Below are positions 15,525-63,894 of a stretch of 64,000 nucleotides of DNA, in pieces (within the stretch, counting starts at the first letter, position 1; the number at the start of each line of letters is the position of its first letter). The translations under genes and the position numbers were made by a program. Location of the stretch: the sequence record OL964735.1. One strand, 5' to 3'. Source of the DNA: Escherichia phage T4. The notes under the pieces are model-generated. The model did no database searches, was not told the origin of the DNA, and saw only the letters and a list, made by a program, of their open reading frames with translations.

Positions 15525-15725
15525 ATGGTACAAAAATTAATGGCACTTGTTAATGCCATAAAAGGTAATAAGAAACGTATAGCTTTTACTATTTCTGCTA
15601 TGGTAGGAATTTTACTCTGGAACTTTATTTTATCACCTGTTGCAATTGCACATGGTGTTAATATTCCAGTAGTTACTCTTGATACATTCGTAGATTTAGC
15701 ATTTGCTTTAGTTGGGTTAATTTAA
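15525..15725 (+). CDS. hypothetical small membrane protein (66 aa), the only plus-strand gene candidate in the window
   Basis: Strong SD AAAGGAGG 15511-15518, 6 nt before ATG 15525; two hydrophobic segments; sits in the 310-nt dam-61 gap; stop TAA 15723-15725 interlocks with the gene 61 stop in the palindrome TTTAAA. Confidence 0.55.
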   Translation: MVQKLMALVNAIKGNKKRIAFTISAMVGILLWNFILSPVAIAHGVNIPVVTLDTFVDLAFALVGLI

Positions 15726-16750
15726 ATCTTAGCATATTTAGATAGCCGCATTTTAGCCATTAACCCCTGGGCAATATTATTTTTCATATATTCCATAATT
15801 TGTTCAGGGGTTGCACCTTCCTTTCTAATCATATCATTAACATCTTTTGATTTCCAGGGAGATTTATCCCAAAACATAACCCTTTCTCCTGCATCAACTA
15901 ATTTAGTCATTCGTTTAATAGTGTCAGGGTGACGAGGTTCATTATCTAAGACCCACACACGTCTATCTTTAAATGGAACAACTTCTAGGTCTAATTGACC
16001 GCCCGTAATAGCTATACCATTTTCAATAAAAAGTGAATCTATAGGTCCTTCTAGAACATATACATCACCATCTTTAACTCGTTCGACTCCATAGATTTTT
16101 GTTGCCTCAGGATAAGCTTTGATGGTGATATATTTTTGAGGAGCATCTTTCTTTAATGCACGTCCTTGAAAAGACTCAGCTTTTCCATTAGCATTATAAA
16201 TTGGAATAACAAGACGAGGCTCAGAAATTTCCTTTTTGTATGTTCCCGGTGCTATGCTATTAACTAATTTAGGCCATTCGGTTGTAAACCAAAGATATTT
16301 CCATTTATCCTTTGGAATACAACGAGCTTTTACGTATTTTATAATTGGATGGTCTTCCGCCAGTTTATCTAATCTAACACATGACGGAAGAGATTTAATT
16401 ATTTTCTTCTCGGGTTGTTTAGGAAGTTCTTTAGGTTTTTCTATTGGACGACTTTTACCTTTTTCTTTTCTTATTTCAAAGATATACTCACGATATAAAT
16501 CGGGTTCAAACTCCTTTAAATATATTCCGATTGGTGCATGATAGTTACAGTTATAACAATGAATATTTCCTTCATTATTATCACCATAATACCATCCACG
16601 GGCTTTATTCTGGTCGGTTTTTGAATCTCCACAAACAGGGCATCTAAACCGTAATTTAAAAGTTGAACTATTATTTACTTGTGTGAATTTAGGTAAATGA
16701 GCTAATGCACGGTATGCAAACTCATTATCAATCCAAGGTATTGATGACAT
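15722..16750 (-). CDS. 61: DNA primase gp61, 342 aa
   Basis: Zinc-finger CPVCGDSK...C..C; length and sequence match recalled T4 gp61. Confidence 0.92.
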   Translation of the reverse strand: MSSIPWIDNEFAYRALAHLPKFTQVNNSSTFKLRFRCPVCGDSKTDQNKARGWYYGDNNEGNIHCYNCNYHAPIGIYLKEFEPDLYREYIFEIRKEKGKSRPIEKPKELPKQPEKKIIKSLPSCVRLDKLAEDHPIIKYVKARCIPKDKWKYLWFTTEWPKLVNSIAPGTYKKEISEPRLVIPIYNANGKAESFQGRALKKDAPQKYITIKAYPEATKIYGVERVKDGDVYVLEGPIDSLFIENGIAITGGQLDLEVVPFKDRRVWVLDNEPRHPDTIKRMTKLVDAGERVMFWDKSPWKSKDVNDMIRKEGATPEQIMEYMKNNIAQGLMAKMRLSKYAKI

Positions 16751-16752
16751 TT

Positions 16753-16917
16753 TTACTCTTCTTTTTCTTTAGATTCCTCTTTTTTCTTTTTAGGAATCTG
16801 TTCAGGACCTTTATTTACTACAGCGCCTGATGTTGTTCCAGTAGAGATATTTTCAGGATTACCACCTGAATCTCCAGCGACCATATCTTCTTTGATAAAT
16901 TCTTTAAATGTTTTCAT
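16753..16917 (-). CDS. hypothetical 54-aa protein (positional 61.1) with capsid-targeting-sequence-like N-terminus
   Basis: Hand translation MKTFKEFIKEDMVAGDSGGNPENISTGTTSGAVVNKGPEQIPKKKKEESKEKEE; coordinates anchored to gene 61 start and the stop of the 16919 ORF. Confidence 0.5.
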   Translation of the reverse strand: MKTFKEFIKEDMVAGDSGGNPENISTGTTSGAVVNKGPEQIPKKKKEESKEKEE

Positions 16918-16918
16918 A

Positions 16919-17545
16919 TTAACCTCTATTCATAAAAGCATTAAAAATTTGGTCATCAATAGAAACATTTACTTTAGGCTGTTTTTCAGATGGCAATTCA
17001 TATCCACATATTACAATTTTATGATCAATATCAAAATACACAGAAGCAATATGATTAATGATATTTTCAGTAAAGTCTAAATCAACATCAATATCTTTTT
17101 GACCAAAGCCCAAAGGATAAATAATGCGAGTAATTCGATTATCTTTAACAAAGATTCCACCGACATACTCTGTGCTGCGTTTAAAGTCTACACGCCGACG
17201 AAATGAAAAATATTCAGGCTCTTTATGAGCTCGGCTCATAGGACACAACGAATAACTAGAATAAGAGATGTCAAATCCTACGCCTTCAATATGAACTAAA
17301 TTGTCATGATTAAACCAATTATAATCATATGCCAAGTCCATTAGATTGTCATATGTGAAAGGCACCGGATTAACATCATTGGTCACAAGCATATAATTAG
17401 CAACTGCTATAATTTCATTATTTTTAACGAATACAAACCGTGATTGATGCGAATGGCCTGGACCTGCGTTTTCACGATTAATGATATAACACTGGGCACC
17501 TTTATATTTGTACGTGTCTTTACACTTGTGCATTTGATAAAGCAT
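16919..17545 (-). CDS. hypothetical protein (208 aa; positional 61.2)
   Basis: ORF in track; member of the 61.x small-gene cluster. Confidence 0.65.
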   Translation of the reverse strand: MLYQMHKCKDTYKYKGAQCYIINRENAGPGHSHQSRFVFVKNNEIIAVANYMLVTNDVNPVPFTYDNLMDLAYDYNWFNHDNLVHIEGVGFDISYSSYSLCPMSRAHKEPEYFSFRRRVDFKRSTEYVGGIFVKDNRITRIIYPLGFGQKDIDVDLDFTENIINHIASVYFDIDHKIVICGYELPSEKQPKVNVSIDDQIFNAFMNRG

Positions 17546-18369: not shown

Positions 18370-18399
18370 ACTATACCATAGTCTTGTCAGCTTGTAAAC
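18370..18399 (-). promoter_or_regulatory. T4-type early promoter (-35 GTTTAC 18394-18399, -10 TATAGT 18370-18375)
   Basis: -35 overlaps the gene 41 stop codon; inverted repeat GACAAGACTA/TAGTCTTGTC flanks the -10. Confidence 0.7.
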
Positions 18400-42602: not shown

Positions 42603-43635
42603 CAATGTGTTCAGTAGAGTTCGCTACTTCTCTACCCGTTTATATGAAACAATGTAATTTGGATAATTGTCATCTAAACACAAATCTTTAATACGACTTG
42701 GGTGGAGTTTTAAATCTTTAGCAGCATCCACAAATGATTTATAGATATTGTCATTTATTTTAACATATTCTGGGACGGGATGAATTGTTATTTTTATATC
42801 TATAACATTTGGATGATTACTAACCTGTTCTTCAGAGCATTTAAGAAATTTTGCAGCTGATTTAAAACTTCTAAATTTATTTCCGGATTTTAAAGCTATA
42901 GAAACAGTCTTTTTAGCCGTTCTACTACCAATATTATTTTTAACATGAGCTTCACTTCTACTATTATTTTTATAATGCTCAATCAATTTCTCTCGTATCT
43001 TATCTTTATGTTTTAAAGATAAGATTTTACCTTTATGGGCATTACTAAGTTTTTGCTTATGTTCTTCTGAATCCGGATATTTGTTAAATTTATATCCACC
43101 TATAGATTTATTAAGAATAAATTCGTTATTAAAATATTTCCTAATAAGCATTTCTTCATGTTTAAGGGCCGATTCATAAGAATCAAAAACTTGAAGAATT
43201 ATCCACTTAGCTTTATAATCTTTAAGCTTTTCTTTAACAAGCTTAGATGACGAATTGTATTCTTTCCAATTTGTATCTTTACCATATATAGTTTTGAATT
43301 TTTTAAAACCTATATAAAAAGACTTATCAGGAAATCTTACCATATAGGTAAATGCTACAGAATTGGCAATTTTTAAGCTTTTTCTTAATTTCCATTTCAT
43401 CGTTTCACCTCGTATTCATATTTATACGAGGATAAACAGCTGCATGTCACCATGCAGTTCAGACTATATCTTCAACTCTTAGAGTTGTCTGCCGTTTCGG
43501 GTCGCTTGACCCTACTCCCTTACATTCATCAGGGATAGTCGTTGGGCATTTACAGCTACTGCTGATTTAGCAACGGATTGTCTCAGTGAGAGTTTCCCGT
43601 TTTAGGCAGATTTTACATGAGCTTGACTTACGTTA
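42603..43635 (-). mobile_element. group I self-splicing intron in nrdD (1033 nt) carrying the I-TevII ORF
   Basis: 5' exon ends in U (43636), intron ends in G (42603); the 1033-nt length and restored frame match the known T4 nrdD (sunY) intron. Confidence 0.85.
42624..43400 (-). CDS. I-TevII: intron-encoded GIY-YIG homing endonuclease I-TevII, 258 aa
   Basis: Entirely inside the nrdD intron; GIY-YIG-like motifs (FTYMVRF ... SFYIGF). Confidence 0.85.
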   Translation of the reverse strand: MKWKLRKSLKIANSVAFTYMVRFPDKSFYIGFKKFKTIYGKDTNWKEYNSSSKLVKEKLKDYKAKWIILQVFDSYESALKHEEMLIRKYFNNEFILNKSIGGYKFNKYPDSEEHKQKLSNAHKGKILSLKHKDKIREKLIEHYKNNSRSEAHVKNNIGSRTAKKTVSIALKSGNKFRSFKSAAKFLKCSEEQVSNHPNVIDIKITIHPVPEYVKINDNIYKSFVDAAKDLKLHPSRIKDLCLDDNYPNYIVSYKRVEK

Positions 43636-62883: not shown

Positions 62884-63197
62884 TAAGTGTTGGTCAGTTT
62901 ATCTTTAATTGCTTTAGCTGCTTCGATAGCCGCTTGCTGAAGGTCATCCATAGACATGCCGAACTTAGAAGCAAAGTTATCAATTTTCTTTTCGACGGCA
63001 TTCAAAGGCTTGGCCTGTTTACCTTCATTAGCGCCAGGAAGAGCGAGAATACGCTCTCTGTCAATATAAAGGCTTACAAGTTTCTTACGGTCTTTATCGG
63101 GCAAATCATGAAATGAATGGGCCTTTTTATTTACAGCGGCTTCTAATTTACCTGCGCCCACTCGCGCTTCGGCAATAAATTCTTGATATGTTTTCAT
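62883..63197 (-). CDS. ipII: internal protein II (IPII), 104 aa, with capsid-targeting N-terminus
   Basis: N-terminus [11 protein letters not shown] shared with IPIII; position upstream of denV. Confidence 0.85.
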
Positions 63198-63312: not shown

Positions 63313-63894
63313 TTAAGAATTACCACGGGCTGCATTAGCAACGGCGTAAGCGTACTGAATATTAGCGTCTTTAAACTTACCTTTAGAGGTATCTATTTCT
63401 GCCTTAAAGCCGCCTTTAGTCATAACATCGGCAAATTCTTTACGGAAAGCCATTGCATCAAGACCTTTCCATGATGATTTATGCTTGGCAAATTCAAGAC
63501 CTGCGAAGTTGACAGCTTTAGCCAATTTATTATCAATGACCCATTTACCGGCTTTAGGCACAAACTTCGGGCCTTTCTGTTTAGAGAACAGTTTTAAATT
63601 CCAGCGGCGAAGGTCTGCATCAGCTTTAACAAATTCTGAGTCTAAGTTACTAGCAACAACATCTTCAATATGAGCAAATTTAAGTCCGTCAACTTCAATA
63701 TTTAAATCGGTACGCCAGCGAAGTCCTTCCCAAGCGAAGGCTTTAAAGTCGGAAGCCTTTGTAGCTAAGTACCGTTCAATAGGAGCTGTTTTAGGGTCAA
63801 AGCCGTTTCCTGATCGGTAGGTCCACTCATCTTTGTTAATGCCTTTGGCCTTTACTACAGAAGCTTCGGCAATAAATTCTTGATATGTTTTCAT
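63313..63894 (-). CDS. ipIII: internal protein III (IPIII), 193 aa, with capsid-targeting N-terminus
   Basis: N-terminus [18 protein letters not shown]; length matches T4 IPIII. Confidence 0.88.
   Translation of the reverse strand: MKTYQEFIAEASVVKAKGINKDEWTYRSGNGFDPKTAPIERYLATKASDFKAFAWEGLRWRTDLNIEVDGLKFAHIEDVVASNLDSEFVKADADLRRWNLKLFSKQKGPKFVPKAGKWVIDNKLAKAVNFAGLEFAKHKSSWKGLDAMAFRKEFADVMTKGGFKAEIDTSKGKFKDANIQYAYAVANAARGNS

Follow-up and report, generated by a model that had tools for sequence, protein, structure and literature searches.

What is the small gene that immediately precedes the primase gene of phage T4, and where would its product act? We addressed this question for gene 61.1 in a 64,000-nucleotide stretch of Escherichia phage T4 DNA (record OL964735.1; hereafter the window, in which a coordinate is approximately the NC_000866 coordinate minus 2213). 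The gene encodes 54 amino acids, MKTFKEFIKEDMVAGDSGGNPENISTGTTSGAVVNKGPEQIPKKKKEESKEKEE; the literature we found on gp61.1 consists of genome tables only, with no paper discussing a resemblance to the major capsid protein gp23. Compared with its relatives, it has a ratio of non-synonymous to synonymous substitution rates (dN/dS) of 0.10-0.19, with dS saturated; the gene is real, codes for a protein and evolves under purifying selection. As judged by the alignments presented here, it is a local paralogue of one gp23 segment, and not a capsid protein. We tentatively propose that 61.1 enters the prohead core and is cut by the protease gp21 after E10.

Residues 2-38 of 61.1 align with residues 57-93 of T4 gp23 without a gap and with 46% identity. 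In this alignment, I8-K9-E10↓D11 falls exactly over L63-T64-E65↓A66, the gp21 maturation site of gp23 (arrows mark the bond concerned); F4 and F7 lie over gp23 F59 and F62, and the remainder of 61.1 is placed over the N-terminal arm of gp23*. Only residues 57-100 of gp23 are represented in the small protein. Residues 66-105 of gp23* are disordered and located inside the unexpanded head, where they probably touch the scaffold; after expansion they are externalised as the 'arm and N-fist' and help to form the Soc site (PMC9546572).

Several searches lead to the same protein. Querying all PDB sequences with 61.1 in phmmer gave gp23 as the sole match (E=0.0039), and a profile built from 56 family segments retrieved it from the PDB at E=3.7e-13, the next match standing at 0.26. 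Run on the six-frame open reading frames (ORFs) of the window and of the T4 head-gene locus, the profile scored 86 bits for 61.1, 52 bits for gp23 (E=2.9e-15) and 5.9 bits for the next ORF. A tblastn search of 50,697 phage records with 61.1 recovered its own homologues together with true major capsid proteins, e.g. gp23 of phage KKP_3664; 1,491 records were matched at E<=10, some of the weaker matches lying inside gp23 rather than in 61.1 homologues. A search with the gp23 fragment returned mostly gp23 fragments. Pfam scans of 61.1 (E<=10) and of six of the longer homologues described below gave nothing meaningful, and no PF07068.

Some automated annotations call the homologues 'major capsid domain-containing protein', and many GenBank records (L001:2734-3153, OL615012, NC_027349, MN580668 and others) name them 'major capsid protein' or 'putative major capsid protein'. 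We attribute this over-annotation to the local gp23 similarity.

The segment of 61.1 that covers the gp23 cleavage site also resembles the leader found on internal proteins. Both ipII and ipIII open with the same 10-residue capsid-targeting sequence (CTS), to which MKTFKEFIKE of 61.1 is identical at 7/10 positions, I8-x-E10 included; the first-pass annotation had pointed to this match with its (L/I)xE motif, and it holds. We compared all 1,663 Met-initiated 10-mers that the six frames of the window contain: outside the internal proteins, the best other match is 5/10, and 0.0014 matches of >=7/10 are expected by chance from composition. The CTS resemblance of the leader is thus not chance. In most Tequatrovirus homologues the leader is MKTYKEFIKE, with 8/10 identities to the CTS. 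Residues 4 and 7 of the CTS are the main determinants of targeting, and residues 8 and 10 those of processing (Mullaney & Black 1996, summarised in PMC9026906); all four mapped positions are retained in 61.1, as F4 (Y4 in most homologues), F7, I8 and E10.

Outside the 30-nucleotide leader we found no DNA likeness between 61.1 and the ip genes that would be a sign of recombination: the flanks show 17/40 and 12/30 identities. Within the leader, 24/30 nucleotides are identical, which T4 codon bias can explain. The module profile of the 61.1 family matched neither ipII nor ipIII.

Homologues of 61.1 fall into short and long forms. An exhaustive hidden Markov model (HMM) search of 1.84 billion representative proteins gave 53 family members, while a word-indexed homologue search was shallow, with 14 matches for 61.1 and, for the long form P0030, one besides the query. 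T4 61.1 matches both phrog_1823 (short form, E=6.8e-34) and phrog_2086 (long form, E=2.1e-16). The family module of ~40 residues reads h-x-E-[DAES]-[MV]-V-A-G-D-S-G-G-x4-I-A-x-G-x-T-S-G-x-V-x3-G-P-x3 and is followed by a Lys/Arg-rich tail. In short forms, of 50-70 residues, only a short leader stands ahead of the module; in long forms, of about 120-250 residues, the module is at or near the C-terminus, after a ~100-residue domain with the pattern W.A.K.GIID..G.L.K.P.T..EK..YT.FH..VR..K.

The AlphaFold2 model of the long form P0030 is confident for the N-domain (pLDDT >90 for residues 11-70) and has a pLDDT of about 50 in the module, with a helix extending up to the h-x-E of the latter. A Foldseek search of the PDB with this model gave no match at E<=0.001, and in BFVD it found essentially only family members, with E down to about 0.07. 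The long-form domain also occurs inside larger BFVD proteins (A0A411BBR2, 672 residues; A0A1B1IT15, 913; A0A7S5R3P1, 387; A0A6J7WVK5, 396); fusion to helicase 41 or primase 61 may explain these, as may read-through annotation. Some members (P0036, P0052, P0054 from locus L005:6001-6744, P0038, P0039 and P0064) carry a second leader-like motif after their Lys-rich tail, such as FKQFVE, KTFDEFV, KTYKEW or FSEWV; in P0036, P0052 and P0054 an extra domain of ~95 residues follows it, an arrangement resembling the fusion of a CTS-bearing gene behind the module. The protein P0016 (1126 residues) has 17 stretches that match positions 28-48 of the 61.1 profile, and is probably a low-complexity Gly/Ser/Lys repeat, not a relative.

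Counting back from the predicted cut, 66/66 members have Glu at P1, the position that aligns with gp23 E65; this holds for short forms, with their N-terminal site, and for long forms, in which the site is ~100 residues in. Counts at P3 are 26 for Leu, 19 for Ile, 8 for Met and 7 for Phe, so that L/I accounts for 45 (68%) and L/I/M/F for 60 (91%) of the 66 members. P2 and P4-P7 vary freely in long forms. Conservation of P1 and P3 is as would be expected of selection for an (L/I)xE protease site; a structural role could account for it too. Although its DNA diverges, the module as a whole hardly varies in protein sequence, including across phages of Escherichia, Klebsiella, Acinetobacter, Aeromonas and Vibrio.

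A family gene lies directly upstream of the primase gene in T4, Aeromonas phage Aeh1, Proteus phage Pm5461, Serratia phage WSPA, Mosigvirus phiC120 and metagenomic contigs. In Aeh1, Pm5461 and the metagenomic T4-like contig L005 it is the sole gene between helicase 41 and primase 61, and in Pm5461 its start overlaps the gp41 stop. Because it is the long form that sits directly upstream of primase across diverse phages, it appears to be ancestral, and the T4 gene would be a 5' truncation. The junction can be followed in phiC120, where ...QKEIFKELPLFE↓DMVAGDSGG corresponds to MKTFKEFIKE↓DMVAGDSGG of T4, with the common DNA A(T/C)A TTT AAA GAA. No separate ORF for the long-form N-domain was found in the T4 window or in other short-form loci. 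T4-type short forms nest beside Mosigvirus long forms, and short forms therefore probably arose more than once.

The leader follows this division. Its motif, [FY]-x-[EDQK]-[FWY]-hydrophobic, is present in about 17/24 short forms, including lineages only ~40% identical to T4, and directly before the module in 0 of about 30 long forms. Similarity at the N-terminus is thus conserved both within Tequatrovirus and in many distant short forms, a check that the first-pass annotation had proposed. The CTS-like leader seems to accompany the loss of the N-domain; since it occurs in short forms and never at that place in long forms, the distribution suggests that it replaces a function of the lost domain.

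How might such a protein work? The leader helix and the gp23-like arm would let 61.1 bind the scaffolding core, like gp23, gp24 and the internal proteins, and 61.1 would so be built into the prohead. Cleavage by gp21 after Glu10 would then leave a disordered peptide of ~44 residues with a Lys-rich tail, which may stay in the head or exit with other core fragments. Targeting and cleavage are steps that we infer, as would be any role after injection. Unassigned helical density under the gp24* P domains was ascribed by its authors to the cleaved gp24 leader or another digested core protein (PMC9546572); a 61.1-type leader or arm is one further candidate for it.

A metagenomic T4-like contig lends this proposal some support. 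In L013:1958-5213 (Logan SRR22000239_482876), five small genes of 78-148 codons lie just upstream of the 61.1 homologue. Their common start, MK(T/S)(F/L).(E/Q)(F/Y)...E, takes the forms MKSLTEFMLSE, MKTFNQFLEE, MKTFNEFLTE↓A, MKTFEEYTAE↓A and MKTFEEFTTE↓A, and the homologue itself begins with MKTFNEFLKE↓AEVSGDSGG. From these leaders, the cluster looks like an array of internal-protein-type genes with one common CTS, placed beside primase.

Positions of 61.1, of its parts and of the features compared with it are collected in Table 1. Read along the transcribed (minus) strand, the genes are 41, dmd, 61.4/tifA, sp, 61.2/adfA, 61.1, 61; 61.1 is therefore directly upstream of gene 61, and not downstream of primase as first annotated. 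The stop codon of 61.2/adfA (16919-16921) lies between the GAGG and the ATG of 61.1, whose own stop codon occupies 16753-16755, and the gene 61 ATG is at 16748-16750. On the other side of the primase gene, the ~300-nucleotide gap between dam and gene 61, without annotation in NC_000866, contains a plus-strand ORF of 66 codons (15525-15725) for a strongly hydrophobic, membrane-like product.

Table 1 Features of gene 61.1 and its surroundings in the window.
Feature	Position	Strand	Description	Basis or remark
Gene 61.1 ORF	16753..16917	minus	ATG start, 54 codons + TAA stop	Annotated gp61.1 hypothetical protein in NC_000866
Shine-Dalgarno GAGG	16923..16926	minus	5 nt upstream of the 61.1 ATG	From sequence
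CTS-like leader MKTFKEFIKE	16888..16917	minus	Codons 1-10; P10-P1 of a gp23-type maturation site	Aligns with gp23 A56..E65
Predicted gp21 cleavage motif I8-K9-E10	16888..16896	minus	Predicted cut after E10	Aligned to gp23 L63-T64-E65↓A66
gp23 N-arm-like module	16792..16887	minus	Residues 11-42, DMVAGDSGGNPENISTGTTSGAVVNKGPEQIP	Family profile match to gp23
Lys-rich tail	16756..16791	minus	KKKKEESKEKEE	Last codons carry the probable gene 61 ribosome-binding site
Primase gene 61	15722..16750	minus	Directly downstream of 61.1, 2-nt spacer	Adjacency conserved across the family
ipIII CTS (comparison)	63865..63894	minus	Start at 63894	
ipII CTS (comparison)	63168..63197	minus	Start at 63197	
Sigma-70-like promoter upstream of dmd	18370..18398	minus	TTTACA-17-TATAGT, extended TG	Consensus scan only

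Predicted mature 61.1 comprises residues 11-54: 44 residues rich in Gly, Ser, Thr, Lys and Glu, a length and composition in agreement with those first proposed. Its expected D11-initiated fragment is DMVAGDSGGNPENISTGTTSGAVVNK. An A-run lies in the tail, where an indel of 1 nucleotide switches the T4 version to the basic T6-type tail RNLKKKKSKNVINTLD; strongly basic tails are found in the T6-type and in most other family members. From 16777-16791 (minus strand) to about 16725, T4 KKKKEESKEKEE and T6-type KKKKRNLKKKKSKNVINTLD are a single-base A-run indel apart. The +1 frame of T4 keeps the complete basic T6-type tail, overlapping the start of primase gene 61; as this frame is intact behind the A-run, slippage there could yield a second 61.1 isoform.

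Between the promoter upstream of dmd and gene 61, a scan found no terminator-like site, so that 61.1 is probably expressed on an early polycistronic transcript. Its RNA is indeed classed as 'early' (PMC9697503, supplementary file 4). The RNAs of ipII and ipIII are likewise classed as early, yet those proteins accumulate late and are packaged (PMC9697503).

Several points weigh against a packaged, gp21-cleaved 61.1. Its protein is undetected ('NA') in a time-resolved proteome of T4 infection (PMC9697503); our literature search found no virion proteome listing it, nor an experiment placing it in proheads. There is no TATAAATA late promoter near the gene, the nearest on the minus strand being at 43419. 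The predicted mature T4 form has 7 Lys for 9 Asp+Glu, a net charge of about -2, while internal proteins are basic. Met or Phe at P3, in 23% of members, falls outside the gp21 (L/I)xE consensus, and long forms do not keep the CTS-like residues at P7 and P4. Descent could also account for the leader: with ...KEIFKELPLFE↓DMVAGD in the Mosigvirus long form, KTFKEFIKE of T4 may be the remnant of a truncated helix, not an acquired CTS. In the exhaustive HMM search, the family profile did not match full-length gp23 at E<=1e-3: the homology is accordingly local and short, and the evidence for the link to gp23 comes from the PDB and T4-proteome searches and from tblastn. In 40 IMG/VR loci we found no neighbouring genes with CTS-like leaders, which makes the L013 array a single case. 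Finally, the constant position between 41 and 61 could mean a role in replication.

Alternatively, 61.1 may never be packaged. A soluble, cytoplasmic copy of the gp23 cleavage site and N-arm would compete for the binders of that segment, whether gp22, gp21, the portal/gp40 initiation complex, the chaperonin system or a host capsid sensor, and would thereby tune assembly or blunt immunity. We regard this as possible, if rather unlikely. The gp23 homology on which it builds is robust, and the gene belongs to an early transcription unit with RNA of the early class. Early head factors do occur in the same place: gene 40, for a head-vertex assembly chaperone, is part of the conserved uvsX-40-41-61.1-61 cluster. 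In the gp23 arm, mutations A66D, A94V and G97S alter head length (PMC9546572), and Lit and CapRel are reported to sense the capsid protein via short motifs (PMC13581612).

Co-variation of the two proteins would also agree with a common partner. We paired the module with the gp23 arm of the same genome (29 IMG/VR genomes, giving 15 non-redundant pairs) and found an identity of 14.6/30 with the arm of the own genome and 14.2/30 with those of other genomes (permutation p=0.007). Substitutions are parallel at aligned positions, e.g. N-to-K in both proteins only in L049. Because the effect is small, the genomes are related and the samples are not independent, this excess no more than hints at a shared partner or at gene conversion.

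Still, the cytoplasmic copy has no known partner, and it leaves the invariant P1 Glu and the recurrent CTS-like leader of short forms unexplained. No part of gp23 is described as more conserved than the Gol region, the trigger of Lit, and we take that region to lie just downstream of the segment copied in 61.1. With the Gol core placed there, outside the copied segment, we rejected a Lit/Gol decoy.

The position of the gene raises the alternative of a primosome accessory: the family would work with gp41 and gp61 in loading or coupling, its Lys-rich tail binding DNA, and the gp23 likeness would be a relic. We hold this to be unlikely. A family gene is directly upstream of primase at every locus examined, and in Aeh1, Pm5461 and metagenomic contigs no other gene separates 41 from 61; expression is early, most members have basic tails, and the family domains within BFVD proteins of 387-913 residues are possible fusions with the neighbours. 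However, T4 has lost the whole N-terminal domain and kept only the capsid-like module, and a replication role hardly explains a module under strong purifying selection whose agreement with the gp23 cleavage site extends to every residue. As gene 40 illustrates, a gene of this cluster need not function in replication, and T4 replication forks have been reconstituted in vitro without gp61.1.

The first-pass annotation had considered a co-injected counter-defence peptide on the grounds of the 61.1-dmd cluster: the mature peptide would be injected with the DNA and neutralise a host defence, like IPI*. In T4, 61.1 does adjoin dmd, tifA and adfA, an anti-toxin-antitoxin island (PMC9391042), and it has the CTS-like leader; T-even internal proteins are described as diverse anti-restriction factors sharing only their CTS (PMC3012670). 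That neighbourhood stands, but as a weak argument specific to T4, since the family is alone between 41 and 61 in Aeh1, Pm5461 and L005. These phages lack the island genes: the family predates the island, which is probably a later insertion beside it. The island paper does not mention 61.1 (PMC9391042), and we found no similarity of 61.1 to any island gene. A module nearly invariant across hosts is unlike counter-defence proteins, which are typically variable, and its conserved part resembles a structural element of the capsid. As packaging would have to be true first, we consider this role quite improbable.

Least credible of all is a chance likeness or decaying remnant in which only translation of the ORF matters, for coupling to gene 61: the gene is small, part of its region is of low complexity, its last codons contain the gene 61 ribosome-binding site and a frameshift separates the T4 and T6 tails, but the rarity of CTS matches expected by chance, the low dN/dS at saturated dS, the tblastn matches across phage records, some of the weaker ones in gp23, and a module protein that hardly changes while its DNA diverges all speak against it.

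We return to the proposal that 61.1 is a prohead-targeted substrate of gp21, and to what would follow from it. T4 head assembly is among the best-studied assembly pathways, and the CTS serves in engineering to load capsids with foreign proteins. Were 61.1 a gp21 substrate, the T4 prohead components would include one more conserved member, overlooked on gels because of its small size. The register common to the CTS, the gp23 site and 61.1 would give a simple common rule for core entry and show from what the CTS evolved. Its helix code (aromatic P7/P4, L/I at P3, E at P1) would be common to gp23, gp24, gp22 and the internal proteins, and 61.1 would be an evolutionary link, the CTS of internal proteins having descended from the end of the capsid-protein propeptide. 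A released arm peptide could occupy the binding sites of the gp23 arm and affect head size or vertex/portal geometry.

More broadly, many T4-like phages, and probably the whole family, might possess in this free-standing copy of the gp23 protease site and N-arm an overlooked prohead component or regulator that uses the common helix code, a generalisation that we put forward with considerable doubt. Should 61.1 be unpackaged, a strongly conserved soluble mimic of the capsid arm needs explaining, and regulation of assembly or evasion of capsid sensing are the obvious candidates. In either case, homologues in many cultured phages suit structural or genetic work.

How does 61.1 compare with known T4 systems? 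With Dmd, TifA and AdfA it has in common that all are products of small, adjacent early T4 genes; it differs in having no sequence relation to them, and in belonging to a conserved family that occurs without the island. The gp21 substrates Alt, gp24, gp22, gp67 and gp68 have, like 61.1, short leaders ending in (L/I)xE, such as MLKEQLIAE↓A in gp22 and MELITE↓L in Alt; gp24 presumably begins with MAKINELLRE↓S, which fits the same pattern. Unlike 61.1, these five are established head components, and they share no sequence with its module. Alt also loses a C-terminal propeptide (LTE-619, PMC5694885). This C-terminal release by gp21 is a precedent for a module freed from the C-terminus of long-form 61.1 proteins; between the Alt C-terminal propeptide and the 61.1 module we found no sequence likeness.

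A further comparison is with IPI, IPII and IPIII. They have a 10-residue leader MKT(Y/F)xEFIxE with aromatic residues at 4 and 7 and I-x-E at 8-10, and their transcripts are early, as in 61.1; the 61.1 homologue of L013 has its leader in common with a small-gene array, as is the case in internal-protein loci. The three internal proteins are packaged, whereas for 61.1 packaging is what we infer from sequence. Moreover, 61.1 has no globular cargo: its predicted mature part is a disordered, gp23-homologous peptide of ~44 residues, not basic in T4. Many T4-like phages conserve the gene, in contrast to the hypervariable internal-protein genes, and the long forms, apparently ancestral, have their site internally, ~100 residues from the N-terminus.

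With gp23 itself, 61.1 shares local homology over ~40 residues. The spacing GD..G....NIA.G.TSG.V...GP is the same in 61.1, with the cleavage motif in register, and the region is flexible or disordered in both proteins: the model of a long-form homologue has low confidence there, and in gp23* of unexpanded heads it is not resolved. What 61.1 lacks are the HK97-like shell domains, the 55 upstream propeptide residues and the downstream Gol/EF-Tu-binding region; it ends in a Lys-rich tail where gp23 has its capsid body. The N-terminus of gp22 (L003:5118-5927, T4 gene 22) also follows the pattern of the CTS, the gp23 site and 61.1. In this common pattern, P7 and P4 are hydrophobic or aromatic, P3 is L/I and P1 is E. 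It suggests that one code governs core entry, in which 61.1 would connect the gp23 site with the CTS.

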